A stretch of 64,000 nucleotides of DNA from Yuukianura sp. NJ FZ-2021 (GCA_046563655.1 CM102286.1:7936001-8000000), one strand, 5' to 3'. Shown: positions 5,355 to 63,421, numbered from the stretch's first letter. A program made the numbers and translations. Notes: generated from the sequence alone by a model not told the origin.

Positions 5355-7190
5355 AAACAAAGACTCCCACGCTACTTCCCCAACTAGAACACTGGAACAG
5401 CATCTACCCGCCGCCATTTGTAAAAGCTTACACTTCCCTTTTTAGTTGTCTCCTATTGTTAAGGGTACCTAAACCTATTTGGCCAAGGACTGACTTCCTC
5501 CATGACGCCATTCCACCAACACCCCCGCGTCGACTACCCTAACCTACTGTACTTTGTCAACGTCACTACTCCTTTATTCACTTTCTCCTGTCCCGTTCTG
5601 GTGAATCCCCAATGAACAAACAGAGTGACAAGCTTTAAATCACAGTTTCCATTTACTTCTTCAGCACCTTTTCAATCCAATTGAACGTAGAACGAAATCA
5701 GACAGGAGGACATGCCATTTTCTGAGAACTTTCGGCTTATAAACTACTTTCCCTTCCATTCCTAACTTAAACTTAACCTTTTCCAACTTCCAACTTGGAA
5801 AGCTTAATACTTAAGAACTATTCTCTTGCAAATCGTATCAAATTTAAACAGTTGAATGGAATGACAGGTTATACTTTAGTACCAAAGTTTACTCAAATTC
5901 ATCATAGCACAACCTAACCTTATAAGAAAACCTTGACAGAGTAGTATAAGGCTTTGAATGGCTGTGAAAATGATACGTGTGAATCTTTTCAAAATTTTGA
6001 AAAATTTGTGCTTCACTACTACGATGCATATCACTTTAAAAAAACAGATCATATCAGACGCTGTATGCTTTAAATCATACATATATGACTAAACATAAGA
6101 CAAGAATGAAGGGTAGAAAAAGTTTTTAGCACACAGAGTTCATTCAGTATCAAAATCCATAGAAATGTGCGTGTTGTCAATGAATGAAAAGGAAAATCCA
6201 TTTTCAAAATTTGGAGAAAGTTTTTGACTTGGAGATTCGACTAACATTGCGGAAACTTTAATTTATGTGCTAAAACATATCTTTACCAATTAAAATTAAA
6301 CTAAAACATATCAGAGACACAAGGTATCAAAACTATTTGTCATTTGTACATATCTCAAAACTGGTCAAAATTTAACAACATATCAAATTGATATTTTGTG
6401 GGCAGAAACTGAAAGAGTGAGAGTAAATACAAAAAAGCTTTTCCAAAATGTATTTCTGGAAATTTTAGTTGAAGTGAAAAACAATTAGTGTGTGGATGAA
6501 AACTGAAATTGTTATGCAATTGAGCCGAAACGAAAGTGAACCTGGACTTATAAAAAAGGATTCTAATCTTATGGCCCTTGTGTGTTTGTGATTGTGTACA
6601 TTAAAGCTTTGGGAGTTAATAGGGCGGGAAAGTTCAAATTTCCCATGCAAAATGCTAATGGAATGCAAATCACTTTTCTTTTGATTTCGTGCAAATTTTA
6701 GTAAGTTTTTTTTTTTTTGGCGAGAGGTTGGTGCTGGTGAAAGGGTGAAAGCAACCCAAAGAACAGATGCAATGTGCATAGCAAAATCATAATTATAAGC
6801 CCTGTAGACTCTACCCATTTGTTTAAATTTGAGCTCCGCGGGGGAAAGTTTTGGATTTAAAAATTCAGTTTTGCCTCTTAAAGTGGAAAGTTCTGTAAAA
6901 ATTTTCTTGACTTTTTCTTGTGAGTACTCGAGGGACGGAAGGAACGTCGTTGAAAAAATCTTTTAAAAGCAGTTGGTGTAATAAATTTTGAAATGTTGCC
7001 GCCTCGTTATACAGAGAATTGGGTAGCAATTATTTATTCAAACCTCCTTTCACCAGCCAAAAATTTGAAGGAATTAAGGCCGGTAATGTGTGTGCGCACT
7101 TGAATTATTAATACTGGAATGGCTTTATTAAACTCCAGCGCCAATACTTTCAGCTACATTATTGTGCCATTCTTCTCTCCCGTCTTTAGA

Positions 7191-8109
7191 TGGTTCCAGG
7201 TCATAAGGGCCAAACCAAAAAGGGCCAATCCAATAAGGGCCAGTCAAAAAGGGCCGAAAAAAATAAGGGCCAAATCAATAAGGGCCAATCCAATAAGGGC
7301 TATTTTCAATAAGAGCTAAAAAAAATAAGGGCCAATCCAATAATGGCTAAAAAAAATAAGGGCCAATCGAAAAAATTCTGGTTTAGTGTACTATTTTTGA
7401 AAATGCTGAAAATTTTTGTGCAGGCCCTACATGGACACCCGATAACGAAAAAAACCTTGACCGAAAATCAAAAACCCAATTTCAAAAAAATCATAATTTT
7501 GAAAAAGAAAAATTAACCTAACCTAACCCTTTTGTCCTCTAATGTAAGACAAAAAAGTTATGAACTTTTGAACCTAACCAAACCTAACCTTGATTAATCA
7601 GTACACCTCCGTAATTTGCATAGGGACATCAAAGATGCCCTAGAGCTTTGGTATTGAACAGAATAATCAGCAGTGTCAACGTAACCAAACCTAACGCCGC
7701 GCCTTCGGCGCGGGAAACTAAAAGAATTCAACAGCAAGGATTGCCAACTTGAATTCAGCAGTTACTTTATTCTCGTTCGGCTTCAAAAATTTATAAATAT
7801 CTTTATTTATCTTTATTTAGCTTACATCCTGCAACAAAAGTTCTTGCATAATCGTGGTCAGCACACTTTAATTAGTCTGGAAACCGACTTTCATGCAATT
7901 CGGAATTTTTTTTACGCTAAACCAGAATTTTTTTGATTGGCCCTTATTTTTTTAGCCCTTATTGGATTGGCCCTTATTTTTTTTAGCTCTTATTGAAAAT
8001 AGCCTTTATTGGATTGGCCCTTATTGATTTGGCCCTTATTTTTTCTGGCCCTTTTTGACTGGCCCTTATTGGATTGGCCCTTTTTGGTTTGGCCCTTATG
8101 ACCTGCTAC
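7191..8109. mobile_element. Foldback-type MITE with ATAAGGGCC-like repeat arrays in ~190-bp TIRs; 9-bp TSD (MULE- or Merlin-like)
   Basis: Arms CAGGTCATAAGGGCC... / ...GGCCCTTATGACCTG; GTCTTTAGA repeated at 7182-7190 and 8110-8118 (boundary ambiguous by 1 nt). Related copy at 57958-58545. Confidence 0.85.
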
Positions 8110-16576: not shown

Positions 16577-19500
16577 TCACTTCTTTTTCGGCTGCGGCTG
16601 TGTCCCTTTAGCATTATTCGGATCCACAATTTCGCCCGTGACGTAAGTTCGACGGCGGAATCTGCAATAGCAATATTGAATGAAACCTTTGAAGAGGAAA
16701 CACTCTGAAATGGGTTTTTTGATTCCCGAAATTGGCAATTTGAATCAGCCCAATGAACCCGTGAGTCTTTGGTTGTTTTGAAAATGTACGCCACTGACCT
16801 GTGTTCGGTTGCAAATGGAGCGATCTCGGATGGTTGTGCGGCGGCTGGTTTGGCCTTTCGTAATTCTTGTAAACTAAGCAGAGACTTCTCAGAAGCGACA
16901 GCCGATTTGCGTGGATCTGCCGTAGGTTTTGGGGATTTGAAGTAACCTTAAAAAAAAGTGAAAACAAAATTTTCAATAACACCAATATGGTTGACAAAAA
17001 ATTGAAATCATGACAATAACTTTTGAATAGACCAAGACATTTTACTTTTGTCTTTGGATGTAACTTGAGCGGGTTGACCAACATTTGGTGTTGTGGGTTC
17101 CAAGCCTTCGATGAACACTTCTTCTTTTTCCTTGGCTTCATCTTCAGCGTCAGCTTTTGTTTTGGGCTAAAATAAGAAAAAAAAAAAAGTAAGTGGATTT
17201 TAGTTCCGAATTGCATTCTATTCCAAATTCAAGCGTCACAGGAACACAGGAAACAACAACATGTCAGTTTTTACCATAACAAAACTAAAATTGTCCCAGT
17301 TTTCTCGTTTGCACAATATGAGTGAACGTCAAATGCTAAAGGTTTACATTACATTCTACTCAAAAACCACACTAGAGTAATATTACAGCGTATCGAGTCA
17401 CTTTAGTAGATTGCCTCACTTTTGTATTGTCTATTTCTAGGTTTTCAATCATTTCAACTTTGTGGTGGTTAAATTCTACCGATCAAATGACTTCCATTTC
17501 GCCACGACATTTGAAAACTAATCAATATTAAATTAGTCTCAACCTCATCCATTTCGTCACTCCAATGCGTTCACAACCTGGAATGGAAAAATTCTTTGGT
17601 GAACCAATCAGAGTTTATAAACTCTCTAAACTACTTCATAAAATTTTCAACATGTTGAAGTCAAGCACGAACAGGAACACTGACTTTACTTTGCTTTCCT
17701 AAATTAGGAAGCGTTTCAAACTAGATCTGGTCAAACATTATAGTATAATACGATTTCATAAGCCGTGATAGCAACGAGAAATTAAGGCTAGCGGCTTCAC
17801 TGTTTAAAAGTCTAGCGATGTTATTATTATCAAGCTCAACGCGTAAGAGGATAGCGCGTGTGCATTTGATAGTCGTTTAAATTGTTTTTCGGGATTTCTT
17901 TGAAATTTTTCATGCAAAACACAAGCGGGGATACAAAGACTCTGTTTCCTTCAAATATGATTGAACCCTAACTTTGCAAGAAAATACAAAGAGCTTATTT
18001 TAGGCATGTTTTCTAGAATCAGTCGCTCTAGAAAAACAAAACAGGTTATAAGTGGGCGTAGAAAAAAATAACAATAACGTTGCCACTTGTTTGAACCATT
18101 TCATGTAAAAACGACCTGCCAAAGCTGAATTTTAAATTTTCAATCTCATCAAAAAACGCTATTCCAGAAATACGTCAGTAGAGTATTCGAGGGTGAGTTT
18201 ACCTCATTTATTTTTAGCTCAGCCGCGGGGCTAGTCGGGCGCAATATTGGGGAGGGGAAAAAGGGTCCCTCAAAATCTAAAAACGACAAAACATTGACAA
18301 AAATATCAACATCAAAAATATCAACAACAAAAATGTCAACACCAAAAATGCAACGTTTCACAAGAAGAGGTTTGCATACTTTGCCGCGGGGCTCGTCGGG
18401 CGGGGAAAACCCTCAAAGTCTAAAAAGATCGATTATCCCAGCAAATTCACCGTTTAACCTAACAAATTCAACGATTATCCTGAGAAATCCACTGATCAAC
18501 CTAAGAAATTCGCTACATAACCTATGAAAATGGTCGCCTACGCTAATCCCTTTGTTGTTCAAAATTGTTGAAAGCTGTCTCTAACCGTATGAAACCGTAT
18601 GTAGCCGTCTGTAACTGACTACGACGCTTCCGGAATCTATTTTTAGAACTCGCATCCACTACGCCACGTTCCCGGGCGCCGTGAAAACTTCAGAATTTGC
18701 TAATCAAAGTCTCCAGAAGTTCTCCAGTATCAAGACCGCTATCGAACTTTCCAGATCCCCCAATATTTTAAAAGATGGCTACAGAGTACAAAGTATTCAA
18801 GCCGAAACGCTTGAACACCTCATGGCTACAGTGTTGGATTTATCCAGCCAAGTCCTGGAGGAGCCTTTGGGCCGTGTGAGCCAGCCATTGGAAGCCAGCC
18901 CTTGGACGCCAGCCCTTGGACGCCAGCCCTCAATTCGCATGAATTTTTAACGTAATATAACAACTTCACTGCATAATACAATGGCGTCTCTGCATAATAC
19001 AATAGCTTCTCTGCATAATACAATGGCGTCTCTGCATAATACAATGGCCTCTCTGCATAATACCATGGCCCAGTTGTATAATACCACAACGTCATTACAT
19101 AATGCCGAGTTTGTTCTGTACAACATAGCGAGTTTGCGAGAGTAAAGTCTAGACTTTGTCAATGTCACGGGAACTTACTCCGTGAGTACACGTTGCAGAG
19201 TTCTTCCTCGGAATTATTTCCCGCAGGTAACCTTCCTTCGAGAGTCAGATCATCGTCAATACCATGGTCACGTTGTATAATACCATGGTCACGTTGTATA
19301 ATACCATGGTCACGTTGTATAATGCCATGGTCACGTTGTATAATACAATAACCTCACTGCATAATACAACATTTTTTTGTCAATTTTACATCCAACCACC
19401 ACCACCACCACCCCAACGTACCCATCCATGCAAAAGTATAAATAGCGACGTTGCCTAGCTCATCTCTCAGTTTCATTTCAGACGTTGAGCTGTGAAGACG

Positions 19501-22500
19501 TGAAGATTTTACCATCTGGAGCGGTTAGGCTAACAGTCATGGCGCAAAAATACATTCTTGTTCACGAAGACGACTACAACAGTCTACTGGATCAGCTTGA
19601 GACATATGAGTCTCAGCAAAACAGCCCTTGCAAAAGTTATTTTGGTGAAAAGCAAATCCATGATGGTTTTTTGCCTGATACTAAACCCGTACAATACTTA
19701 CAGCAACATACAATGAACATGCCTCAGAGCCGTGAGCCAAAGGAGCTTTATGAGCGTAATTCGCGAGATTCTGGGAACCACATTCCAATCGAACTTCAGA
19801 ATCATATGATGCAAACGGAATTACGCCAGAACTGGGAAAATCAACGGAAGCAAAGGGAAGGCTACGTCAATGTGAACGTTGTAAGCGATAGGCGGTTGAA
19901 TGATATAGCTACAAATCACTTTACCGGATGGGATGGTGGACGGGAAAAGTCAGCCAGAAAAACCGAAGACAGATATGACCGAATTACGCCCTGGTCAGAA
20001 AATCCAACGAATGATTGGTCAAATATTGTGGTAAAGCCGAATGACGCGCTCGAGATGCCATTTTCCAAGAGATTTAAAAAAGAATCGCAAATAGCGAAAG
20101 ATGAAACGCCGACAGCAGCACCGACAACTCCACCGTTTACTCTGGACCAGTTTTCAGCTGTTGGAAAACAGCTAGCACAATTTTTTGTAGCAAATGGTGC
20201 AACCTTTGCGAGCAATAGCGTTAGTCTGGGTGATGCCAACATACCCAGGAGCGAGTTCGAGGAGGGAATACGAAAACTTGCGGATGGAAGATATAAGTTG
20301 ACAAGACAAATGATTCCTGTCATCGTAGACTTTATGATTCAGACAGGCATTCCAAAATATCTGCTTCCGATCAGCCACCGAGGCTTGCTCGTTCGAGATG
20401 AACCTAAAAAGCTTTCTAGAAATCGCCCGCACGTGGAAAGTGATGTAGAAAATGAAGAAGAAGAAGATGACGAGGAAGACGAAGGGGATGAAGAAGGGGA
20501 AGAAGTCGAAGAAGAAATAGAAGAAGAGGAGGAAAACGAGGAAGACGAAGGGGATGAAGAAGGGGAAGAAGAGTATAGACAAACTGGAGGAGCTAAACCA
20601 TCACCAGGTCCCATACGACATTATCAATTTCTCCACCAGATGAACCAACACTCCCCTATTATACGCGAGACACTTCTCTCCACAGCGTCTCCTGGTCAAA
20701 TCCTTGGGTTACACAAATGTGTTCAGGACGTAATCCAGGGCAACATTCCTATTGAGGCCACCGTCAAAAATATCTTGAGACCGCATCGATATAAGATTAA
20801 ACGTGTTGCAGAAGCTAAAGGATCGATTGAAGACAAGAAAAAACTACTTATACAACACGGCGGGTTCCTGCCAGCTCTTCTCGCTGCCGCATTACCAATA
20901 CTTGGAGAGTTTCTCACTAGCGTAATTTCGTAGAATTATACACCTTTATGACTGTATATTCGTTAGATTCCGAATTTTCAAAATAAAAAAACTTGAAAAT
21001 AGAACTTTTATCGTGTAATGTGTTTATTCATTCATTCATTAGCATAGATTCGACAATTTTCAGGAAATATATTATCTCTAATGCGAAACAAATCATTTTG
21101 TCGTTGAGTTAAATCGATGAATAGATATCCATATTGCTTTGACATGCATTCCTTGTAGGCTTCTTCCATGGTTGTATTCTTCTTTCCTCCATTCATTTGA
21201 CGTCCAAGACAAGCTACAAATTGAGAGTCTCGCGGATTCTTCATTAGAGCAATGTAGTGACAGTTTGACGTGATTTCTTTCATATTCCTGTGAAAAAAGT
21301 TTTGCACAAGAATGATGAGTGATACGTTGCGGTGATGCGAAGTCCTTGTGAACGCAGCTCCAACTTCTCCGTTTTTGCCTGCTTCATGCATCAAATCGTC
21401 AAGGACGACGACTGACGGCTTGTCGGTTCCGTCATGCCATTTTTCAGGAAGTCCACGATGAAATTGTATAGTTGGAATCTTGGTCTTCAATTCTCCAAAC
21501 AGCGTAGGCTGGAACTCAGTGTAGCAATACATGATACGTTCCAAGGGCTCGTCAATATTAGTCTCGATAATTTCGTTTCGTCGTAGAAGTATTTGCTTCA
21601 CAAGGGTGCTTTTGCCGCTCTGAGTCATTCCACTGATGCACATAGTAAACGGTGCAACCAAATGCGGGTCAAACTTTTTCCCAGAGTGTACATGTCGAAA
21701 CATAGTAGATTTTTCCCGCTGATTCATGCATACCTGAAGCATTTTCGATACTGCGACGCTACTATGACAAGTTAACTTGTGTCGTTTCATTGCGTCCCTT
21801 CGTGAGAATTGTCTGCGGCAAATATCGCACGCTGTACTGGTTTCCATGATGTATAGTCCACAGAATCTTCACGTCTTCACAGCTCAACGTCTGAAATGAA
21901 ACTGAGAGATGAGCTAGGCAACGTCGCTATTTATACTTTTGCATGGATGGGTACGTTGGGGTGGTGGTGGTGGTGGTTGGATGTAAAATTGACAAAAAAA
22001 TGTTGTATTATGCAGTGAGGTTATTGTATTATACAACGTGACCATGGCATTATACAACGTGACCATGGTATTATACAACGTGACCATGGTATTATACAAC
22101 GTGACCATGGTATTGACGATGATCTGACTCTCGAAGGAAGGTTACCTGCGGGAAATAATTCCGAGGAAGAACTCTGCAACGTGTACTCACGGAGTAAGTT
22201 CCCGTGACATTGACAAAGTCTAGACTTTACTCTCGCAAACTCGCTATGTTGTACAGAACAAACTCGGCATTATGTAATGACGTTGTGGTATTATACAACT
22301 GGGCCATGGTATTATGCAGAGAGGCCATTGTATTATGCAGAGACGCCATTGTATTATGCAGAGAAGCTATTGTATTATGCAGAGACGCCATTGTATTATG
22401 CAGTGAAGTTGTTATATTACGTTAAAAATTCATGCGAATTGAGGGCTGGCGTCCAAGGGCTGGCGTCCAAGGGCTGGCGTCCAAGGGCTGGCTTCCAATG

Positions 22501-25500
22501 GCTGGCTCACACGGCCCAAAGGCTCCTCCAGGACTTGGCTGGATAAATCCAACACTGTAGCCATGAGGTGTTCAAGCGTTTCGGCTTGAATACTTTGTAC
22601 TCTGTAGCCATCTTTTAAAATATTGGGGGATCTGGAAAGTTCGATAGCGGTCTTGATACTGGAGAACTTCTGGAGACTTTGATTAGCAAATTCTGAAGTT
22701 TTCACGGCGCCCGGGAACGTGGCGTAGTGGATGCGAGTTCTAAAAATAGATTCCGGAAGCGTCGTAGTCAGTTACAGACGGCTACATACGGTTTCATACG
22801 GTTAGAGACAGCTTTCAACAATTTTGAACAACAAAGGGATTAGCGTAGGCGACCATTTTCATAGGTTATGTAGCGAATTTCTTAGGTTGATCAGTGGATT
22901 TCTCAGGATAATCGTTGAATTTGTTAGGTTAAACGGTGAATTTGCTGGGATAATCGATCTTTTTAGACTTTGAGGGTTTTCCCCGCCCGACGAGCCCCCG
23001 CGGCAAAGTATGCAAACCTCTTCTTGTGAAACGTTGCATTTTTGGTGTTGACATTTTTGTTGTTGATATTTTTGATGTTGATATTTTTGTCAATGTTTTG
23101 TCGTTTTTAGATTTTGAGGGACCCTTTTTCCCCTCCCCAATATTGCGCCCGACTAGCCCCGCGGCTGAGCTAAAAATAAATGAGGTAAACTCACCCTCGA
23201 ATACTCTACTTACGTCATTCCAAAATCTTTAACAATTGAACCAAGAAGACCAAAATCGTAGACGGGAAGACTGGAAGACTATAGAATCGTAGGTGGAAAT
23301 GGGAGCAGATGCCTTACCGCTTTGTCTCCAGCAAATCGAATCCCGATCTTCCTCATGGCAGACATGGCTTCATCGATTGCATTCAACACGTCACGGTCAG
23401 TTTCATTTTCCCGGAGTCGCATTGCCGTTTCATCCAATTTTTGCAATAATTTATCATCGTCGGATCTCTGCAGTGTATTTTTCATGTCGGGCATCATGTT
23501 AGACACTTTCATTCTGACATTGGCCACGGCATCGTCTAAAAAACAAAACAAAAAAACAGTGACCTAGAAAATTTTAATTCTTTCAACACAATCCCAAACC
23601 GGGTTGCACTTAATGTTAATCGTTCATCTTTACTTAAAAACGCTTTAAAATAACATGTGCCGAATATTTTCGCGTTACCGGCCATTTGTAGTGTCTGGTC
23701 AAAAAAATGTTCGCGAAAATACTTTCGTGAAAAAGTGTCGATGATTTTCCGTGACATGTATAGAAACAGCATGCGGTCCTGGACGCTCTTCCCTTTGGCG
23801 AAACCTGTACAAAGGGCAAAAACAAATTAATGTGAGGAGGACAAAACATTGGGGAATAATTCTACGGTTGCATCAAACACACTCCAACATTTCCTCCAAT
23901 TTCAACATTCCCTACACTTTCCTTGTCATTCTGAGCAAAAACTTGGAAAAAGCCCGGGATGTGCCGGGAATCCCTGGAGTGTCGTTCGCAGAGAGCAGGT
24001 TGGTTGATTAGACGGATGTCCTAGGTTGTTGTCAGAGATGTGGCAATGAAAAAGGACTAGAATAATACTAAGGCAGCACGTCGCAAACTGAAACTTTTCC
24101 TGCCCGCCCACATCCTGTATACGTGGGCCCTCCAAAAACTTCTGTCATTGGAGCTGAAGTGTCGAGCACAAACGTAACGACAAAATAGCTTACGGAGATA
24201 AAACTTTTTGGTCCTGGAAAATGAAATGGAAGGAAACAAAGCGCAAAAGTATGAGGGGAGAATCGACTCATAAATGCACCTAACACACACAAGAACAACA
24301 TGCACACACACAACCAAATGTTACACTTTTCACACGTCTAACACGTTACACACACGTCTACCACTTTCGCACACGTCTACTACTTTCGCACACGTCTAAA
24401 AGTGTTACTTTCCGCACACCTCTAAGACTTGCATTTCACACACCTCTAAGACTTGCATTGCACACACCTCTAAGACTTGCATTGCACACACCTCTAAGAC
24501 TTGCATTGCACACACCTCTAAGACTTGCATTTCACACACCTCTAAGACTTGTATTTCTCACACGTCTAAGGATTTTGTTCTCACACACCTCTAGACTTTG
24601 TTTTCTCACACAAGAACAACTCTCTCCGCCTACTTTTTTTGTTCGCCTCATCACGTGGTCTGCAGCGAGGGAATCCCACTTGAACACAGATATTTATCTG
24701 GTCAGACCCTGTTCTTTGTGTACGAAATCGTTTGTTTTCGTAAGTGGAGTTACCGACTTATTAATTATTACCGACGGATTATTTAGTATCACCATGGATC
24801 TCACATGACAACGTGTATTAAACCTATTAGACGAACTGAGGAGCGCGATTACATCTCCAAATACAAACAGTGGAAACATGAGAATGTTATAATCATAGTA
24901 CAGAGTAACCCCTAAGTTAGCAAAACAAATCCCTCCCCTTTTTCAGCGGCGGGTACCGTAACAGTTCAAAAAGGAGCGAAAAGGTTGCCGTTGTAAATTT
25001 TTTGTTGACAAACTGATAAGAGTAAAGATAAGAATAACCTCACACTGGAACTTTACGATAACAAGGCGGTGCGTTTTTTGAATCTAACCAATAAGAGCGA
25101 TTTGCTAACTCAGGGGTAACTCTGTATAACTGCTTAATGTAATAATTGCGTCGTCGCGATTTAAGCTACCAAGGTTCAAAGCCTTATTTAAGCGAGAGTG
25201 GGTAGCCTTTGAAATTAAATTTTCATAACTTTTGACTTGGACCAGCAAGAAAGCTACAAATTTCTTGAAACATCCTTTAATATAGAAGCTTTAAGTGTAC
25301 AAAAGGATTTCAGAATCTGGACAGTCGTTTTTTGGCAGCAGTAAAAGAATTGCACTTGACGAATTTATATCTTAAATGAAATTAAATTGTCATAACTAAT
25401 AAATGAACACAATTTCCAACGCAACTGATCACAATGCGAATCAGTTCGAGATCGTCAGAATTAGTCATAGTGATTACTGTACTGTTTGTTCAGTTGTATG

Positions 25501-28500
25501 AAATCACTAAACACTTTATTGAAAAATATTTCAATAGGAAAGACCAGGCGAGATTTACAAATTCAAAATTCAGTGGATTCCCCCACCCCAGTCCACGTGA
25601 TGAGGCGAACAAAAAAAGTAGGCGGAGAGAGTTGTTCTTGTGTGTGAAAACTAAAAGTCTAGAGGTGTGTGAGAACAAAATCCATAGACGTGTGAGAGAT
25701 ACAAGTCTTAGAGGTATGTGCAATGCAAGTCTTAGAGGTGTGTGAAATGCAAGTCTTAGAGGTGTGTGCAATGCAAGTCTTAGAGGTGTGTGCAATGCAA
25801 GTCTTAGAGGTGTGTGAAATGCAAGTCTTAGAGGTGTGCGGAAAGTAACACTTTTAGACGTGTGCGAAAGTAGTAGACGTGTGCGAAAGTGGTAGACGTG
25901 TGTGTAACGTGTTAGACGTGTGAAAAGTGTAAAATTTGGTTGTGTGTGTGCATGTTGTTCTTGTGTGTGTTAGGTGCATTTATGAGTCGATTCTCCCCTC
26001 ATACAAAAGTCTTCAAACTTACGTCCACAATTTATCTTTCCTAAGTTACCGAAATTTCAACTGCCTGAGGCAAAGATCGTCTAAACCGCTGGACTCAAAT
26101 TTTTGTCTACCAAGCTCAAATTTTTTTTTAAATTCATGTAAACATGAAACCTAAATTATAATTGTAAAAAAGCACAACTACTGTACAATTAACCATCGTA
26201 AATAAAAACTACCACATAAAGTTACACTAACAGTACTAAAGTCTGACATATCAAACGTATCCTAACATTTGCAAGTCGACGTGCTGGACAAGCTAATAAC
26301 TTTAATTACCAAGGACTAGAGGGTTTCATAAAACTGTCGAGTAGTTGTAAACATCGTCACGGAATGCTCCTGAACAGAGTCATTTGGTGTCGTAATGTCT
26401 TACGGAACTTTTCAATATCGTTAAGCTTAGGAATACTGCAAGGAGAAAGTACTGTCTCGAAGGACTAAGGAAGAGAAAGTAGTAGAGATTTACATTAGGT
26501 AGTGAATAAAAGACGGAAGCCTTAACGACTCAAAGGAAACAATAAAATATGGAACGAAGGCGCACATCCAACTTTGTATTTCCCGGTCGATTCCATGTTC
26601 TTGTTCAAGTCGTTAAGGGGTGGTAAATGTCTAGTTTGAAATTCAGGCGGGATTTAAAGTCTTGGAATAACACTACACTGTCTAGATAACTTTTGGCTTT
26701 TCTTGAACATCTTTTTCAGTTACTCCTTCCAGTAAGCACTACTGCTGCTACTGACGCTGGTGGGATGCAAGCATTTCCCTAGCGGCTACCATTTCCTTTT
26801 CGGGTTAGATCAGAAACTTCTTCCTCCACGAACTTAATCATGCTGGGATAAATTATTCTAGGGGAAGGGCAACACGTAAAAGCAGAGGAAAGACGGGGCG
26901 AGTAAAAGGCGTTTTAATGGAATCTATTACACACATGAAACGCCACTGAACCGCGCCTAACAGTATTTTCCAGCAGCTGCTGCCCATAATACAACCCCCG
27001 CCTTCCGGGAATCTTTCTTCCAAAACAGGGAGTTCCGCCAACGCCGTTCTGCTGAATTTCTACAGAACTTAAACATACGGTAACATAAGCGCTGTTGGGA
27101 GCGTTCAAGCGTCCCAAGGTTACAAGGTTAAAGCAACCAATTCATCTCCTTCACTGCATGTCCTACCACCACACTCCAGCGTTATGCTTCACCTCTTTCA
27201 AAACTTTTAGTAGAAATTATTACCCTAATTTAAAAAAACTGAACTTGTGGATTTCCATGTTAAATCCTCCAGGAGCCATGAATATCTTAAGCCATGCTAG
27301 CAGCCCGCATTAGCAATTTCTAGTGAAGTTTAGGTAATGGCGTAATATCAAATCACCATCACAAACTCATTAGTCAGACTTAGCTTTTCTAAAAACTGGA
27401 CTAAATCTTGAAATTTCCCAGGCTCAAACACATTTACATCAGAGTAATAACCTTAAAAGTTCAAGGTCACGGCGGAACTTACTCTCTTTAATTCGATTCC
27501 GAATTTCTTCACGTTGTTTTGCTCTGCGACAGTATCGGAGAAAACACACGATGGCGTCTGCCACGCCTATCCTTGCCGGCAAATGTCTCTGAAAATACAA
27601 AATTTAGGCATTAAGGTTTTCGTAAACTGTCGCAATTTGTAAATTTGTGCAGTGCACAAGCACACGGTAATTCGTTTTGCGCAATAGGCCTGCACCCATT
27701 TGTTTGCAAAAGACAAGCGTTTATTATCCAGTAAATTTACGTAATTTTATGTACCGTCTCCTCCGACTCTCCTTTAACGGCTCACTTCGAATAGTAGTAG
27801 TACTGTGAACCCATCCGAATCAACGACCGTGACACATCGTTGCCCTCTTAGTACTAACGCGCCCCGAAAATTTACTTTCTTTTTGCAAAATATGAGAATA
27901 GGAATCCATTTAACTTTCACTTTTTCAGCAACAAACGCGCGGAAATAGAAATCGGCGACATATGGATTCTCCAAAACACGACGTTTTCGTGTTTTGAATT
28001 TCAAATTAGTCGATCAAAAATTCATCAGCAGCGTCTTGGACGAAAATAGAGCATTCTAGTCATACTAGTACGTGGATTTTACCATTCCAATTTTAGCGTC
28101 AGACTTCCTTTCCATTTGTATTGTAGTACAAAGGTGAAGGGTACTTACGAGATGAAGTAATCGATGAAAGAGGTTGGGCACGAAGTTGTTGTAGATGTAG
28201 TCCCCAGGAAGGCAGAATGGGAGAACTGTCAATTGTGTCAGAAATTGGGTGTGGACACGCCAACTATACAACGTGAGTCAAGAAAAAAAATGACGTTAAA
28301 TAAAAATTGAATTGATTAAACTGTGAACTTCTTTTTACCTGTTTGACTGACTCAGGCGCTCTTCGCAAAAAATAAGTGCTCCGCCAATTTCAACCAAGCT
28401 TTGAGTCTACAACAAAAGAAAACGGAATTAGAGTTGACTTTCACCAGTCTCACTATAAAATGGCGTCACTTCAACACAAAAGGACTTTCCCTCATCCCAC

Positions 28501-32359: not shown

Positions 32360-32581
32360 CATAATTCCGATTTTCCAAAATAAACAAGAAAAACCTAACT
32401 TTTGGACGAATTTTGTCTCACCAAAAATATTGGTTTTTTCTTGTTACACATAGAATGATTTCAACCACAGCTAACTTTAGAAACAAGATAAAAGAAAAAG
32501 AGAAATGATTCTAAAACATTGATCTTCAGTGTTGCTACTTACAAACAGATACTTAGCAGAGACGATGATTTTGAAGAAAAT

Positions 32582-35500
32582 CTACAGAGAAAGAAATGTA
32601 ATTTCCTCGGAAGGTCCACTCTCCCCGGCTTTTTGTAGAGTGACATTTATCCCGGGCAGGGTGGCCGATCCAAGGCTAATGGCAGGGAGGACTTGTGTAG
32701 TCTCTATGGTCTGATGTCCAATCTGGCCATCTGAACCTTGAGCTAAAACAAAGGTTGGAGTCAGAATAGAGGGTTGATACAATGGTCCAACAGTAGTAAT
32801 AATATTGGTGGAAGCTTGAGTCTGTTGTTGAAGAGGATGTCGCACGTCGGCACTGCTGCCGTCAGCGGCTACTGGGTACACAGGCGTCGGAGTAACAATG
32901 ATGGGCGTTTGAATTCGGGTAGGCCTCGTCAAAGTGAACGTTGTCGTGGTGTTGGAGGGGTTGAAAGCCCTTGGTCTTACAATTCTGGGTAGGTTGTAAG
33001 TGGGTGCATGAGCGAGCTTACCTGGGCTAACGACTGCTGACTTCGCTGCCACAGGTTGTGATGAATTCACAGTTGCAGTTGGAGTGCCAGTGACGTATAC
33101 AGTTTTCCCTTTGACCTTCATTCCAGCTTCCAGCATTTTGATCTTATCTTGAAGTCTCGACTCCCGCTTCTCCACCATGGACAACTCATACTTCAACTTC
33201 GTCTTTTCTCTCAGGTGATCTTGTATTTGTAGTTGGAGATGTACTGGATCATCCTTCGGCAAACTCCGGATTTGTTGGACCACGTTTGGATCGGTGGAAT
33301 TAAGAGACAGGCCGCTTTTTCTTGCCATAAGTGCTTGCTTTAAAGCTATGCACGGCCGACATTTGTTGTTGTTCAAGTTAAGTCCCTCACAATTCTTGGC
33401 AAACCAAATGCATTCAATTTTTCTTCCAACGGGGGATGGCTCCATACTGTCAAACTGTGACCAGCCTTCGCACACTTTGAACGCCGACAAATCCAAAATC
33501 ATCTCCTGCAGTTTGTATAACGAGTCCACCTTATTTCCAGTTTCGTTGAACATTTGCGTGAAATCAGACCCATTTGCTTCAACCTTGAATGTCAAATCTT
33601 GACGAATCTGCAATAAAAACAAACAAAACTAATTCAAAATCTCCACCGTGAAGTTAATTTTCCATTGTACACGAAAATCCAATACCTTTATACTGCGTCG
33701 AACCATCAGGCGTTCTAGTCGTGACACAATTTCCGCAATAAAAATACATCTTGTCTTCAATTCCTTGTCGACAATCATTCGGAACATCCAGAATTCGGCT
33801 TGCGGTAGTTGGATTCTCTCTCTGGTATCGTATATGTACTGCAAGTTGTACCCGGCGTCAGTGATCTCAAGGATTTTCCCAGTCGGTCTCGGTTTAACAA
33901 CAGAAGCAGGACCGGGTTTTCTGACAGGCGCAGGCTTCTTGGAGTCCGTAGAGGGCATTTCATCATCATCATCATCAATTGTAACCGTAATGGGAGAGTA
34001 ATCTGGATCAGAATCGTATTCAATCTCATACCCATCCACAACTTCTACACGGCTTTTGGGTCCTAACGGCTTTCTACCTTTAGATGGTGCTGCACGACCT
34101 TTTCCAGTCATTACCCCCATTGTAAATGCTTGTTTCGGATAATTAGCGAAAATTGATGGAATGGCGTCTCCTGTTAGGATCTTGCCTTTAGGTGTATTCA
34201 TGATAAACTTTTTATCCTACGAATCAGAAACAAGCACTTGATTAGGATTACACTTTTCAGCATAATAATAAAAAAAAAATGATTATGCGGCTTACAAAGT
34301 GATCTTCGCACAGCAAGTGAACTCTGGGGTCGAATGGTGTTTTACTGAGGGCGGCTGCTGGAATATATCTCATCCAATCCTTGAGTTTGGCTTTAGTCAT
34401 CTGCGGCATTTTGAACAAAGTTGCGTTAGGATTATGATCACAGTACTCGATGAAGCAAGACTTCTCTCCTCTCTGACCGCCAAGCCCCGGAGCGATTCTG
34501 ACTGCCGCATAGCCTGCTGGGAGTTTAACCTTGATTGGCACAGCCCTACTTGGAGTTACTGATCCCCCTCGCTTTCGTCCCCTTGTTGACGTTGAACCTC
34601 GAGGACGACCACGTTTTCCGCCTCTGCTTGGTCGTCGGCGACTATTGGATGGAGATGGCGGAGAATCAGCTGGAGGGCCAGCATCCAGGTAGTCTTCGTC
34701 AGCTTCATCACCACTGCCCGATGTCATAGATTCCCGTAGTCTAGAAGGAGGAATGATCTCCCGCTTCAAATGAGCTGGTCGTCCTCCAGATGGTGTTTTT
34801 CTGCCGAACTGATCTCCATCATCGGGTAGAATGGTCTCTGGTTCTAATTCCTTCAGCTTCTTATTAGGGCTGCAAGAAATAAAAGCGTGTCAGCGTGGGA
34901 ACGTGAAGGTGTAGTTGAATAAATAAAAAAAAGTTATTTCGTATTAGTTAGGTTAGAGACATCCTACAAATGAAACAATGAAAATAGGCAAAAAAAAGAA
35001 CAAACAAACTCACCCAGGTTTAGGTGGTGAAGATTTTCGTTTAGTTCCAGAAGTGTCAGCTTCGGTATTGTTATCATCGTTCGTCCCATTTAGTGAGTCA
35101 AAGCGAATCAAATCATCAAATGTTTGTGACCTATAATTAGAAAAATTATTAGTGTGGAATTACTTACATTGTCAATTACTTTTAAGGGAAACAATGAAAC
35201 ATAACCTAGGGTAATACGATGTGGTAATTGGTAAACGAAAACTGAAAGCATTATACTGATACACTTATAATTTGGCTATGCACGTTCTATACACTCTAGT
35301 CTCAAACAAATCAGTATCTATCAAGAAACAATTTTAGAACAGGTAAATACTATAAAGTCTGTATAGTACTTACTGGTACTCGTTAGTGTTAGGCTCGGAA
35401 TCATCAGCAGCACTGATGCTTGATTCCACAGATGCGACTGAAACTGGGTTAACATTTTCAGAGTCCATAACAGAATCTCTTGTGCCAGCATCGGTTTCCG

Positions 35501-36537: not shown

Positions 36538-37467
36538 ACTCTCCTCCATCCTCCGCTGATATTCGCGTATCTCTCACTCTCGCGCTTCGACCAGAAAAAT
36601 GCCACGTCGCAGAGGGTTCCCGGTTCTCTCGCACGGACTTTTTTTGAACCGTATTTCACCTCACGATAAAACTTGTAGGTACCACAAATTCATCAAAATT
36701 AATCAAGAATTTTAACCAAACTCATCTGAACAAATTGTTTTTATTGATTTTGAAAATTAATACTTACACATTAGTATTAGATCTAAGGAAAATGGCATGT
36801 TTTAGTTCTAAATTTCTCAGAAAGACAAATCAATTAGCGTTGAATGGGGAATAAATTACATCATGCCCTCAAAAATATGAAAATCGGGCGAAATCATGGG
36901 GAATCGGGTGTCTAGCTGTTGACATTGCCCAACACGCTAACTTATTAATAATGTTTTACTAGTTGTGTGTTTAGTTCATAATACATAGAATGCTTTCAAC
37001 CAAAGCTAACTTTAGAAACAAGATAAAAGAAAAAGAGAAATGATTCTGAAACATTGATCTGCTACTTACAAAGAGATACTTAGCAGAAACGATGAAACGA
37101 TGATTTTGAAGAAAATTTACAGCGAAAGAAGTGTAATTTCCTCGGAAGGTCCACTCTCCACGGTTTTTTGTAGCGTGACATTTACCCTGGGAAGGGTGGC
37201 CGATCCAAGGCTATGGCATTATGGCAAGGAGGACTTGCGTAGGATCGGTAGAATTAAGAGACAAGCCGCTCTTTTCCATAAGTGCTTGCTTTAAAGCTAT
37301 GCACCGCCGACATTTGTTGTTGTCAATGATAAGTCCCTCGCAATCCTTAGCAAACCAAATGCCCTCAATTTTTCTTCCAATGGGGCATGGCTCCACACTG
37401 TCAAACTGTGACCAGCCTTCGCACACAGTGAACGCCGACAATTCCAAAATAATCTCCTGCAGTTTGT

Positions 37468-40400
37468 CTAACGAGTATTTCCTCGTTCGTTGAACATTTG
37501 CGTGAAATCAGACCCATTTGCTTCAACCTTGAATGTCAAATCTTGACGAATCTGCAATAAAAACAAACAAAACTAATTCAAAATCTCCACCGTGAAGTTA
37601 ATTTTCCATTGTACACGAAATCCAATACCTTTATACTGCGTCGAACCATCAGGCGTTCTAGTCGTGACACAATTTCCGCAATAAAAATACATCTTGTCTT
37701 CAATTCCTTGTCGACAATCATTCGGAACATCCAGAATTCGGCTTGCGGTAGTTGGATTTTCTCTCTGGTATCGTATATGTACTGCAAGGTGTACCCGGCG
37801 TCAGTTTGAAGGATTTTCCCAGTCGGTCTCGGTTTAACAACAGCAGCATGATCATCGTCATCATGAATTGTAACCGTGGGAGAGTTATCTGGATCAGAAT
37901 CGTATTCAATCTCATCGCCATCTACAACCTCCACGGGGTTGTTGCATCCTAAGGGGTTTTTACCTTCAGTTGGTGGTGCGGGACCACTTCCAGGCATTAC
38001 CTCCATTGTAACTGCTTGTTTCGGATAATTAGCGAAAATTGATGGAATGGCGCCTCCTGTTAGGATCTTGCCTTCAGGTGTATTCAAGATAAACTTTTTA
38101 TCCTATGAATCAGAAACAAGCACTTGATTAGGATTACACTTTTCAGCATAATAATAAAAAAAATGAGTATGCGGCTTACAAAGTGATCTTCGCACAGCAA
38201 GTGAACTGTGGGGTCGAATGGTGTTTTACTGAGGGCGGCTGCTGGAATATATTTCATCCAATCCTTGCGTTTGGCTTTAGTCATCTGCGGCATTTTGAAC
38301 AAAGTTGCGTTAGGATTATGATCACAGTACTCGATGAAGCACGCGTGCTCTCCTCTCTGACCGCCAAGGTCTGGAGTGACTCCGACGTCCAAATAACCAA
38401 AGCCTTCCGGAGGATTAACGTTGATTGGCACAGCCCTCGTTGGTGTTGCTGATCTGGTTCGTTGCCGACCCCTTGCTGACGACGTTTTTCGTGGACTACC
38501 ACGTTTAGCGCCTCTGCTCCGTCGTCGACCTCGAGATGGGGATGGCGATATGTCATCCTCGTAGTCTTCGTCAGCTTCATCGCTACTGTGCGACGCCATT
38601 GACTCAAGCAGTCTAGAAGGAGGGACTATATTTTGCCTCAAACGAGCCGGTCGTCCTCCTGGTTTCGTTTGCCCGCCGACCTCTTCTCGATCATCGGCAA
38701 AAATGGACTTTGGTTCCAATCCTTTCAGCTTCTTACTCGGGCTACAAGAAATAAGAAGTGTGTTGAGGGAAGGTTTAGGTCAAGGTAACTAAACAAAATG
38801 ACATACCGCATTACTAAGGTAGTCTCACGAGCCGTTTTTTAATTGTTTTTTGCGAAAGTTATAGTGGGGTGGATTGTTTGTTTTTAAGTTTTTTTGTGCA
38901 AACGTTTTCCTTCGGTCGCAGTACAAAGCAAATTCATTCACTGTAACCACACAGTGTAACCACTCATCAAACATGTAGTTTAAATCGGTTTTAGGATTGG
39001 AAAATGGAATTATACAAGTTTTACGCTTATAGTTACTAAGAATTCATTGTTGCAACTCAATGGCAAATTAGTTGATTTTGTGCCAAATATCGAACACTGG
39101 TTACAAGTAACACATATTGTTACCTCAACCAACTTCAGCACGAATTTATCGCCTTGGATACCACCCCACTATAACTTTCGCAAAAAACAATTAAAAAACG
39201 TCTCGTGAGACTACCTTAGAAAGCGCATTGAGTTACCAAGGGGATTTTTCGTTTTTTTCCTTTTAACTAGAGTGGACATTTGGCATGTTTTAAACAAAAT
39301 TTTTGAAGCAAATCCAACAAGGCTCAAAGAGGCAAAAAAACCGCTTTCATCCGAAGCTTAAGCCCGGTTCTCATGATGAAATTCAAACGTTCATTTCTCA
39401 AACTTTCTGAAATTGTTAATAAACAACAGTTAAAAGGATTATTCTGAAAAAAATCTGCCCAATGAAAATGATGCACTAGCAAATTCAAATGTTCATTTTT
39501 CAAAATTTCAAAAAATCTTCATCAAAATGTTAGAAACAGGGTTTTTGAGATTTGCCAAAAATTTACCAAGATTTGCCGAGCAATTAAATTATGTTTTATC
39601 AAATTTCATCAAAGATATGATATAATGCACATCAACAATTTAAAATTTAAATTTGCATTAAAATTCTTTGCAGTTCACAGAACACTTTATTTCCCTGTTT
39701 CTAACATTTTGATCCAGATTTTTTGAAATTTTGAAAAATGAACATTTGAATTCGCTAGTGCATCATTTTCATCGGGCAGATTTTTTTTTTCAGAATAATG
39801 CTTTTAACTTTTGTTTATTAACAATTTCAGAAAGTTTAAGAAATGAACGTTTGAATTTCGTCGTGAGAACCGGGCTTAAGCTTCGGATGAAATCGGTTTT
39901 TTTGCCTCTTTGGATTTGCTTCAAAAATTTTGTTTAAAACATGCCAGCCAAATGTCCACTCTAGTTAAAAGAAAAAAACCAAAAATCCCCTTGGTAACTC
40001 AATGAGAAAGCGCGTATGCTTTTTGTTTAGTTGCCTTGGTTTAGGTGAATTAAAATAAAAATATATGAATTTCGTAATAATGGTGAAGGAAATCCCAAAA
40101 TGAAATAAATGAAAATTCGCAATCGCAGGCACTCACCCAGGTTTCGATGGTGGTGGAGGTTTTCGTTTAGTTCCAGTGGTGTCATCGTCGGCATTGCTAT
40201 TATCATTCGGAACAGTTGGTGAGTCGCAGGGAATCAAGTCATCAAAAGTTTGTGATCTATAATTAAAAAAAAACATTAAACATGAACGTTAACAAAAACA
40301 CAATGACAACTAAGCGTGTCGTGGTTAAATCAACCAAGTGTTTTTTTTTTAATACAAACCTGGTTTAAATGAAATGCCGAAATTAGCAAGGAAAACGGGA

Positions 40401-62268: not shown

Positions 62269-63421
62269 TTATTATAATAGCGAAGCTATTATTATAAAAG
62301 TGGTTTGTCTGTCCGTCTGTCCGTCTGTCCGTCCGTCCGTCTGTCCCGGAAAACATTAGAACGATTTTCTCCGGAACTATTGGACCAATTTCAACCGGGT
62401 TTTCACCAGTGACCATGTCATGACCCGGACCTATTCACTATTGAATATGACCCCCGTGGGTCAAATGCTTCCGGGTCAAAGGTCAAGGTCAACCGGTTTC
62501 ATCCCCGGTAACCCGGAAAATGACCTCTACAAAAGTTGTTCATCTCATCGAGACCAACAACTTTTGTGTACATCACTTGACCCCAAGTGACCTCCTTCCG
62601 GGTCAAAGGTCAACTTTTCAATTTTACATCCTGCTGTGAGGGAAGCTGTGGATCCACCACCATTCCCACGGGGGGGACCTGAAGGTGGGAAAGTGGGGTG
62701 AACACACCCCCACTCCCCCCGGGGGGGGGCGGGAAAGTGGGGGAACACACACCCCACTCCCCCCAGGGGGAGGGGACAGTGGGGGGAACCACCCCCTCTC
62801 CCCCCGGTGGGGGGCGGGACAGTGGGGGGAACCACCCCCTCTCCCCCCGGGGAACCACCCCCTCTCCCCCGGGGAACCACCCCCTCTCCCCCCGGGGAAC
62901 CACCCCCTCTCCCCCGGGGAACCACCCCCTCTCCCCCCGGGGAACCACCCCCTCTCCCCCGGGGAACCCACCCCCGCGCTCCCTGGGGTGCGGAGCAAAA
63001 AGTGCGGGGAACACCCCCACTCCCCCTGGGGGGCGGGAAATTGGGGGAACACCCCCCGCGCTCCCTGTGGTGCGGAGCAAAAAAGTGCGGGGAACACCCC
63101 CACTCCCCCTGGGGGGCGGGAAATTGGGGGAACACCCCCCGCGCTCCCTGTGGTGCGGAGCAAAAAAGTGCGGGGAACACCATCACTCCCCCGGGGGGGG
63201 GGGGGCGGAAAAGTGCGGGGAACACCCCCACTCTCCCGGGGGGGGCGGGAAAGTGGGGGGAACACACCCCCATTCCCCCGGGGGGGGGCGGGAAAGTGGC
63301 GGGAACACTCCTCCACTCCACCGAGCGGGGGGGGGGGCGGGGGAAAGTGGGGGGAACACATCCCCTTCGGGGGGCCCTATCTTCGCTATTATCATTATGG
63401 GCGGTTTACAACCGGTTTATT
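62269..63421 (+). mobile_element. Helentron-associated/DINE-1-like element with expanded G/C-run minisatellite (~62680-63375)
   Basis: Sub-TIR ATAATAGCGAAG / CTTCGCTATTAT, (GTCY)n microsatellite, core ATGACCTCTACAAAAGTTGTTC shared with 40464-41243, 3' CGGTTTACAACCG stem-loop. Confidence 0.7.

Follow-up and report, generated by a model that had tools for sequence, protein, structure and literature searches.

Autonomous elements of the Maverick/Polinton class are approximately 15-20 kb in length and encode a protein-primed DNA polymerase B (pPolB), an rve integrase, major and minor capsid proteins, a protease, an A32-type packaging ATPase, and a GasderminX/pX-like protein. They end in terminal inverted repeats (TIRs) with AG...CT termini, are flanked by a 6-bp target site duplication (TSD), and carry the ATPase and GasderminX genes centrally and in the same direction. 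The element described here is a 5-kb mini-Maverick within a 64,000-nucleotide stretch of the Yuukianura sp. NJ FZ-2021 genome (GCA_046563655.1, CM102286.1:7936001-8000000); this whole stretch is referred to as the window. The mini-element has the same type of TIRs, TSD, and ATPase, together with a GasderminX-type protein, and its first five bases, AGTAG, are also the terminus of one full-size relative (metagenome locus L059). It differs from the autonomous elements in that over half of its length is TIR, that genes for pPolB, integrase, major and minor capsid proteins, and protease are absent, and that its two genes are convergent and placed flush with their promoters.

Partial gene sets moved by the machinery of others have been described for Polinton-1N1_DR, Polinton-N1A_NV, and polB-less polinton variants of Lepidoptera, which are compared here by description only. 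Polinton-N1A_NV is said, in the description available, to carry a capsid gene. The lepidopteran variants, as outlined in their preprint, keep most virion genes (bioRxiv 10.1101/2025.02.07.637071). In the accessible part of a survey of 72 Polintons, nine elements without a capsid gene also lack the ATPase and the protease (PMC4028283); the mini-element shows the opposite pattern, with an ATPase kept in the absence of a capsid gene. Transpovirons of mimiviruses, as sketched in PMC5499653, are linear, TIR-bounded elements of about 7 kb, reduced from a Polinton-like class, that have no capsid gene and ride in helper particles. According to the same sketch, their gene set includes a fusion of helicase and inactivated polymerase but lacks a packaging ATPase, the reverse of the mini-element (PMC5499653), and their host and helper are of a different kind. 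The PLA2X and GasderminX proteins of adintoviruses, in outline, join an N-terminal effector to a pX-like C-terminus (PMC8502044). The first open reading frame (ORF) of the mini-element appears to have this architecture, with the exception that its N-terminal partner is a different domain without a fold match, joined by an acidic linker.

Phage satellites (P4, and those of the phage-inducible chromosomal island, or PICI, type) encode an integrase and a replication module themselves, and alter the size of capsids or the specificity of the terminase. With them, and with adenovirus defective genomes, the mini-element would share the suggested logic of a small genome using helper capsids. The replication or integration module that PICI, P4, and transpovirons own is absent from it. 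Neither a two-gene mini-Maverick with an ATPase and no capsid gene nor a Maverick satellite was found in the literature searched; Repbase, Kapitonov and Jurka 2006, or paper supplements may hold one. It is an open question whether animal Mavericks still behave as viruses, since particles are rarely seen.

We consider, at a probability of roughly 0.8, that the element belongs to the Maverick/Polinton (adintovirus-type) lineage as a non-autonomous mini-Maverick that is present in several copies and has moved recently. Its host is eukaryotic and probably an invertebrate animal.

Element Boundaries and Gene Layout

The boundaries of the element and its TSD can be read directly in the window. The main features, left to right, are:

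18171-18176, left copy of the TSD, TACGTC; one TSD copy is kept in the empty-site contig
18177-23210, the mini-Maverick element, 5,034 bp
18177-19508, + strand, left TIR, 1,332 bp, beginning with AGTAGAGT
19539-20933, + strand, ORF1, 464 aa, intact, a three-part fusion
20934-21031, intergenic spacer, 98 bp, with AATAAA at 20982 (+ strand) and at 21023-21028 (− strand)
21032-21847, − strand, ORF2, 271 aa, intact, a C2H2 finger and an A32/FtsK-type packaging ATPase
21864-23210, − strand, right TIR, 1,347 bp, ending with ACTCTACT
23211-23216, right copy of the TSD, TACGTC

The two TIR arms align with 0 mismatches and two indels, one of a single base pair and the other an extra 14-bp repeat unit. 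Together they account for 53% of the element. Identical arms fit a young copy. The AG...CT termini, the long TIRs, and the 6-bp TSD present on both sides are those of an autonomous Maverick/Polinton. The 21-base TIR tip occurs twice in the 64-kb window, both times at the element ends (0 expected from 100 shuffles), and neither the tip nor a self-comparison revealed a second copy of the element in the window. The G+C content of the element is 0.42-0.43, compared to 0.35-0.38 in the DNA upstream. Rfam and tRNA scans of positions 17000-24500 gave no match.

The unique sequence between the arms is 2.36 kb in length and is occupied by ORF1 and ORF2, which are convergent and both intact from ATG to stop. 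Neither pPolB nor an rve integrase is present among the ORFs of the element (two of at least 140 aa with a family match). No ORF for a double jelly-roll capsid, penton, or adenain-type protease was found, and the 2.36 kb of unique sequence leaves no room for one.

This layout agrees with a preliminary description of the locus, which had reported a 6-bp TSD, the terminal sequences, near-identical TIRs of about 1.33 kb making up over half of the element, and two intact convergent ORFs with a 98-bp spacer and one AATAAA per strand. The TSD is additionally backed by an exact empty-site contig, described below.

Copy Number and Insertion Polymorphism

Five public runs in two studies contain the stretch, and four of these (X1-X4) were analyzed as Logan contigs. 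Runs X1, X2, and X3 are from one sample, which may be the source of the assembly. Run X4 carries another organism label and belongs to the other study.

Contigs of the element interior are deeper than those of the flanks in all four runs. The flanks of X1 have depths of 43.4 (an 8.5-kb contig) and 71.2, compared to 171-206 for the interior. The corresponding values are 79-216 and 1,745-2,148 in X2, 68-165 and 229-1,396 (interior variant contigs) in X3, and 3.5-10 and 114-118 in X4. Interior depth is therefore 2.4-fold to about 30-fold that of the flanks; as contig depth is not equal to copy number, the values are taken to indicate no more than a copy number between several and tens, or else the presence of free DNA.

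An allele without the element was also identified. The empty-site joint connects position 18170 to position 23211 and skips exactly 5,040 bp, equal to the element together with one TSD copy; seven letters at the joint fit either side. Contigs with this joint exist in X2 (depth 58.9, shorter side 22 letters) and X3 (depth 67, shorter side 30 letters). Such exact boundaries are hard to obtain by chance. Other contigs, from X1, cross both element junctions by 30 nt, so both alleles are present in the one sample. A precise presence/absence polymorphism of this kind indicates recent mobility. The depth and the empty-site allele together indicate that the element has several copies and that its insertion is recent, with no dispersed site of another TSD seen directly in the runs. 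The single copy that the preliminary description had named as a case against its proposal is thus not what the runs contain.

Contigs of the four runs, in two studies, tile the element interior collinearly, and no single public contig in them spans the whole element. Other contigs match the first ~50-85 bp of an arm and then diverge, leaving loose ends at 18227 and 18261-18262, and bins at the TIR tip are deeper than the element interior. Both findings are a hint that further elements share this tip. When X4 is compared with the window, the flanks differ by ~2.5-4%. The interior differs by 0.6-1.9%, and most of the positions concerned are shared with the other organism (A).

A variant of the TIR was seen in contigs of all four runs. 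Within 18341-18428, and in the mirror position of the right TIR, 86 TIR bases (18342-18427) are replaced by 28 other letters. Because the replacement is found in every run, a second TIR subtype is circulating in both organisms.

ORF2, a Finger-Bearing Packaging ATPase

Two segments of ORF2 can be distinguished:

21764-21832, − strand, N-terminal C2H2 finger, aa 6-28 (zf-C2H2_4, E 0.0049, below the cut-off)
21035-21673, − strand, ATPase core, aa 59-271, the part matched in all 80 listed metagenome loci and used in the tree

ORF2 matches Pfam Pox_A32 with 26.4 bits against a cut-off of 22.8. A word-index protein search returned 76 relatives, the best with 74% identity, of which 48 carry PF04665 and 4 carry Adeno_IVa2. 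The exact sequences of ORF1 and ORF2 are absent from the protein collection searched. The GK of Walker A and the DD of Walker B are invariant in an alignment of 29 sequences that includes ORF2. A homologous N-terminal finger is present in 7 of the 11 relatives fetched, and the finger is ancestral to this ATPase clade and not an innovation of the mini-element.

A metagenome scan with the ATPase gave 597 pattern matches and 558 confirmed loci, 80 of which were listed. A tree was inferred by maximum likelihood from 50 rows: ORF2 itself, 25 proteins out of the 76, and 24 loci out of the 80. In it, ORF2 groups with proteins P0001 and P0002 (100/99). This group lies within a 21-row clade (99/94) that includes the ATPases of L001-L004 and L007, which in turn lies within a 29-row clade (100/99). 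The tree has no outgroup from other virus families and shows nesting among Maverick ATPases rather than a place among all A32 ATPases.

By its sequence, ORF2 is a Maverick-clade A32-type packaging ATPase. The earlier assignment to Maverick/Polinton ATPases holds, as the Pox_A32 match is above cut-off and ORF2 nests among ATPases that adjoin PolB and rve genes. Comparison of the ATPase profile with PDB sequences gave matches at the P-loop level only. PHROGs has no family for ORF1 or ORF2, and no relatives were found in viral_contigs with the alignment of either the ATPase or the ORF1 N-part.

ORF1, a Three-Part Fusion Protein

ORF1 can be divided into three parts:

19539-20420, + strand, N-part, aa 1-294, a rare family without a fold match
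20421-20576, + strand, acidic Glu/Asp-rich linker, aa 295-346, with QTGG directly after it at the domain boundary
20577-20930, + strand, GasderminX-type domain, aa 347-464, five helices with a hydrophobic QHGG-FLPALL tail

The relatives found for the N-part are P0085, P0096, the C-terminal halves of P0080 and P0002 (E 9e-11 over 95 residues), and L011:4-597(−). The last of these is a 198-aa ORF and the sole match of the N-part hidden Markov model among the 80 listed loci. The word-index protein search gave no match for the whole of ORF1 or for its N-part. An AlphaFold2 model of the N-part has a mean predicted local distance difference test (pLDDT) score of 57.7, rising to ~90 for aa 200-285. 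No match to this fold was found in BFVD at E ≤ 0.001, and the ESM Atlas gave no usable match. In a wide VIA-align search, the best Z was 4.5, and a few adenovirus capsid chains at Z 3.5-3.8 are too weak for use. One further candidate was rejected: an ORF at 9063-9380 of L059 has an N-terminus that resembles the start of ORF1, at a level that is not significant (E 0.14). The linker has low-complexity Pfam matches only, all below cut-off.

The C-terminal domain belongs to a large family. Against a set of 1.84 billion representatives, phmmer found 479 matches at E ≤ 0.001, 12 at ≤ 1e-10, and 0 at ≤ 1e-30, mostly to proteins of ~110 aa. An AlphaFold model from 50 aligned members has a pLDDT of 90.9 and five helices. 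Its top Foldseek match in BFVD is GasderminX of a box-turtle adintovirus (E 3.9e-06, probability 1.00, template modeling scores 0.80/0.86). The two superpose with a root-mean-square deviation of 1.6 over 104 columns, and the next BFVD match has E 0.49. The model has no PDB match at E ≤ 0.001, so that a likeness to cellular gasdermin was not reproduced, and the family profile gave nothing meaningful against PDB sequences.

Members of the family share a C-terminal tail, Q-x-G-G-F-L, with almost no variation. Pfam Adeno_PX matches this tail in 17 of the 50 members at E ≤ 0.1, with one member (P0087) reaching 26.1 bits against a cut-off of 25; the C-domain of ORF1 taken alone has no Adeno_PX match. 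Of 150 family members, 135 have a QxGG motif among their final 45 aa. Outside this region QxGG occurs 6 times, compared to 1.6 ± 1.3 in 200 shuffles (maximum 5). ORF1 has two such sites, QTGG at the boundary between linker and domain and QHGG in the tail. The preliminary description had called the product of ORF1 a core-type protein. This is upheld for the last ~118 residues, through their family only, and does not extend to the rest of ORF1.

Three other proteins (P0095, P0097, and P0108) join a finger of the FLYWCH or C2H2 type to an extended acidic stretch and a C-terminus of the GasderminX type. The combination of acidic linker and X-domain therefore recurs with different N-terminal parts.

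Gene Order in Relatives

Neighboring genes were surveyed in 63 of 113 ORFs of at least 140 aa from 15 of the 80 loci, with ATPase ORFs and antisense-nested ORFs set aside. The Maverick relatives carry DNA_pol_B_2 and rve with chromo, and L043 also has an adenain-type protease. Their usual order is PolB, ATPase, a small GasderminX-like protein, and an rve+chromo integrase. The genes adjoining the closest ATPases (L001-L004, L007, L009, and L011) encode pPolB, with BLASTP E values of 1e-31 to 1e-136 against the PolBs of relatives that pass Pfam; for L001-L004 and L007 the values are 1e-31 to 1e-76. An rve integrase lies near the ATPase of L004. Of the 66 loci that extend 450 nt or more downstream of the ATPase, 53 have a GasderminX-type ORF after it on the same strand; none was found in the short contigs of the closest relatives, L001-L010.

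The N-part of ORF1 and the ATPase occur together in three arrangements. In the mini-element they are convergent, separate genes. In P0080 and P0002, members of the sister group of ORF2, the N-part is fused in frame behind the ATPase. In L011 it is divergent from the ATPase and stands beside a separate GasderminX-type gene.

Five relatives (L059, L062, L023, L034, and L043) have a central ATPase that is co-directional with the GasderminX gene. L059, ~15 kb long with terminal repeats and AGTAG terminus, is the only relative with both ends. Given this central and co-directional placement, the mini-element, judged by gene order, is not a collinear deletion of any relative's layout visible here. 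The preliminary description had argued that the tidy layout does not look like a random deletion. That argument stands insofar as the layout is collinear with no relative seen; the joint retention of ATPase and GasderminX could be inherited linkage (53/66). An inverted-repeat scan of the 80 listed loci, most of them short contigs and prone to breaks at repeats, found no second mini-element of the same design.

Some features of individual relatives were also noted. The contig of L059 (1-15051) begins exactly at the Maverick terminus AGTAGTGG, has its inverted end at 15051, and continues with 258 nt of other DNA. One end may therefore be free, or broken in assembly, and the other integrated. Its genes are in the order PolB, ATPase, GasderminX-type, integrase, and further ORFs. 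In L011, inverted repeats at 1755-2049 and 6617-6798 (85-93% identical, ~115-190 bp) flank a PolB gene of 1,398 aa, as if that gene were itself bracketed by repeat-rich inverted repeats. In L009 (758-1546) and L010 (4382-5248), the ORF after the ATPase matches a PI-PLC X domain above the Pfam cut-off. This phospholipase C occupies the GasderminX position and brings to mind the suggestion, made for PLA2X, that a virion protein may act on membranes.

Promoters and Repeat Arrays in the TIRs

Each arm contains a predicted core promoter and, upstream of it, repeat arrays:

18953-19367, + strand, two 21-bp repeat arrays upstream of the promoter, with eight copies of ATAATACMATGG in 21-bp phase
19437-19471, + strand, core promoter of the left TIR, TATAAA at 19437 and TCAGT 30 bp downstream at 19467
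22003-22419, mirrored repeat arrays of the right TIR

A mirror copy of the TATAAA/TCAGT pair is located in the right TIR, upstream of ORF2. We take TCAGT to be an arthropod-type initiator, predicted from sequence only. The starts of ORF1 and ORF2 lie 31 bp and 16 bp, respectively, past the inner arm ends. As both ORFs begin just beyond the inner arm ends, the two genes share one predicted TIR-borne promoter and 5' leader. The 12-bp motif ATAATACMATGG has 16 matches in the window, compared to 0.70 expected, and all are within the two TIRs. The arrays are a putative enhancer or binding site for replication or packaging proteins.

Differences Among Copies

A total of 28 substitutions within the ORFs were listed between this copy and the majority contigs, and were scored one at a time; a further 164 differences over the whole stretch stand outside this set. 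Among the 28, ORF1 has 17 nonsynonymous and 6 synonymous differences and ORF2 has 5 and 0, respectively. The N-part of ORF1 has 15 nonsynonymous and 2 synonymous differences. From residue 231 on (C-part), ORF1 has 2 nonsynonymous and 4 synonymous differences (P = 0.02, from small numbers and as one of several tests).

The widely shared indels of the element are an in-frame GAA in the linker, present in the majority copies, and single bases outside the ORFs. Only one frameshifting insertion is among the listed indels, and it occurs in a single contig of X3. The differences between copies mostly record decay after insertion and are weak data on selection in the active lineage.

Proposed Mechanism and Alternative Explanations

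The mini-element has kept its cis-acting ends (the 1.33-kb TIRs with the AGTAG terminus, the subterminal repeats, and one TATA/TCAGT promoter per arm) and lost the genes for pPolB, integrase, capsid, and protease. As it encodes neither an integrase nor a polymerase, its movement must depend on proteins acting in trans, which supports the earlier proposal that it is mobilized by the machinery of others. A resident full-size Maverick recognizing the same ends would supply protein-primed replication and the rve integrase. The helper integrase would make the 6-bp TSD, and the mini-element would be copied and re-inserted in trans. The identity of the arms would reflect youth, or end-repair during replication. 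Both genes would be transcribed from the arm promoters.

By their sequences, both genes derive from the virion side of a Maverick genome, one being a finger-bearing ATPase and the other a protein with a GasderminX/pX-like end of the kind found in virion accessory proteins of adintoviruses. Given this origin and the identical TIR promoters, we lean toward the view that both genes are active and that their products contribute to the assembly of helper virions, which may or may not benefit the element. In a manner similar to the packaging ATPase of adenovirus, which acts with repeats of its own, the finger-ATPase would read the phased TIR repeats as a packaging signal. ORF1 would be cut by the helper protease at QTGG, between linker and domain, and at QHGG in the tail, sites considered here in the light of the adenain cleavage consensus.

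Several observations weigh against a recently mobile, multi-copy mini-Maverick with a resident helper. Free DNA of the element would likewise raise the depth. The empty-site joint is listed in two of the four runs and in neither X1 nor X4. Where present, it has short sides, was found at a likeness threshold of 90 (flagged as risky), and shares its sample with the probable source assembly. No full-size Maverick with the same termini is present in the window, and a scan of viral_contigs with the TIR tip gave 0 matches. None of the five runs containing the stretch is on record as RNA. Lastly, 22 of the 28 listed differences are nonsynonymous, compared to a neutral expectation of 79% (P = 0.55), so that these differences show no purifying selection overall. 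The preliminary description had held that neutrally evolving ORFs would count against its proposal. On these differences neutrality fits (22:6), from weak data of the kind expected of decaying copies.

Two other origins were considered and set aside. A Foldback-type or cut-and-paste element does not agree with the lack of a transposase, the Maverick-type TSD and termini, and the Maverick-clade ATPase. A host gene pair in a palindrome does not agree with an element that is multi-copy and polymorphic. An assembly artefact, in which TIR repeats and unrelated genes form a chimera, is very improbable. Long identical inverted repeats are hard to assemble, and the element is spanned by no single public contig; its interior, however, is tiled collinearly by four runs of two studies, X1 contigs cross both junctions by 30 nt, and the empty-site contig removes exactly the element and one TSD copy.

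The remaining explanations concern what the two genes do. They may be passengers left by recent deletion or rearrangement of a parent Maverick and of no use to the element, with spread depending on the intact ends only, as in an internally deleted DNA transposon or a defective viral genome, and this is a substantial possibility, if somewhat short of an even chance. The neutral pattern of the 28 differences, with its 15:2 ratio in the ORF1 N-part, is in keeping with passenger genes, and the adjacency of ATPase and GasderminX-type genes in 53 of 66 relatives means that inherited linkage can account for both having been kept. In the descriptions available, non-autonomous Polintons form an accepted category (Polinton-1N1_DR and Polinton-N1A_NV), and the lepidopteran PolB-less variants are, by the outline of their preprint, still moving (bioRxiv 10.1101/2025.02.07.637071). 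Passenger genes agree less well with two intact ORFs with complete catalytic motifs, with widely shared indels that are in frame or outside the ORFs and a lone frameshift in one contig of one run, and with the C-part of ORF1 (2/6 nonsynonymous, P = 0.02, the small-number test given above). In addition, two inward-facing genes flush with TIR promoters need more than one rearrangement from the gene orders of relatives.

The element may instead be a true satellite, in which the finger-ATPase recognizes the TIR repeats and loads the 5-kb genome into helper capsids, and ORF1 enters the virion by its pX-like tail and is cut at QxGG. We regard this as unlikely. It would account for the retention of two genes of the virion module and of no replication or integration gene, for an ATPase with a DNA-binding-type finger and eight phased copies of one 12-bp motif per TIR, and for a layout that is not a collinear deletion of L059, L062, L023, L034, or L043. 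The linkage of ATPase and ORF1 N-part in three arrangements in three lineages suggests a functional pair. An ATPase kept without a capsid gene is unusual against the survey, as far as its accessible part goes (PMC4028283), and QxGG lies at the linker/domain boundary and in the tail, with enrichment elsewhere in the family (6 vs. 1.6 ± 1.3). Against a satellite, the finger is ancestral to the ATPase clade (7/11 relatives), the copy differences look neutral (22/28), and a 5-kb genome would probably fill about a third of a capsid sized for ~15 kb. The 80 listed loci hold no second such mini-element, no helper of the same termini was seen in the window or viral_contigs, and a satellite is argued from gene content alone. 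Least expected of the roles considered, and very unlikely, is an interfering element that competes for helper replication, integrase, and capsids, and whose surplus ATPase and fusion protein disturb assembly and damp the helper, possibly to the benefit of the host. An interior deeper than the flanks, TIR-tip bins that are deeper still, strong identical promoters predicted on both genes, and an ORF1 that is an abnormal fusion of two proteins separate in L011 would suit this role, for which the case is indirect.

A currently mobile derivative with virion-side genes only and symmetrical promoters offers a compact handle on the question of whether Mavericks are viruses. If both genes matter to the mini-Maverick, its life cycle must include packaging; otherwise, no smaller non-autonomous Maverick with genes was found described. 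Should the satellite explanation hold, doubtful as it is, this could be the first satellite of an animal Maverick/adintovirus, a 5-kb hyperparasite with a zinc-finger packaging motor and a virion-core-targeted polyprotein that uses helper capsids and protease. It would, in addition, argue indirectly for present-day virion production by animal Mavericks. In either case, the three arrangements of ATPase and ORF1 N-part and the QxGG motifs at domain boundaries provide testable leads, both for packaging in Mavericks and for the site preference of the maturation protease.

The Surrounding Window

The 23 longest of the 38 ORFs of at least 120 aa in the window were scanned. No other Maverick gene, including rve integrase, was found among these 23, and the other long ORFs match THAP, HEAT, and FtsJ domains.

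Several repeats were observed outside the element. A 1.75-kb unit at 24249-26004, ~1 kb to the right of the element, has 438-bp inverted repeats (96% identical) and tandem arrays of 19 and 24 bp. Its high depth in the runs indicates a repeat family of another kind. Four inverted-repeat pairs with arms of 194-568 bp (89-96% identical), close together, are located at 7197-8105, 39226-40004, 43124-44566, and 57965-58536, and look like foldback-like or small TIR elements. A direct duplication (32448-34890 and 36983-38763) is 83-93% identical, has long minus-strand ORFs with THAP domains, and may represent a transposon or gene with a THAP domain, present in two decayed copies. A G/C-rich tandem array at 62687-63365, with units of 23, 43-45, and 83 bp, is open in all six frames and accounts for the rise in G+C to 0.54 in the last 2 kb of the window.

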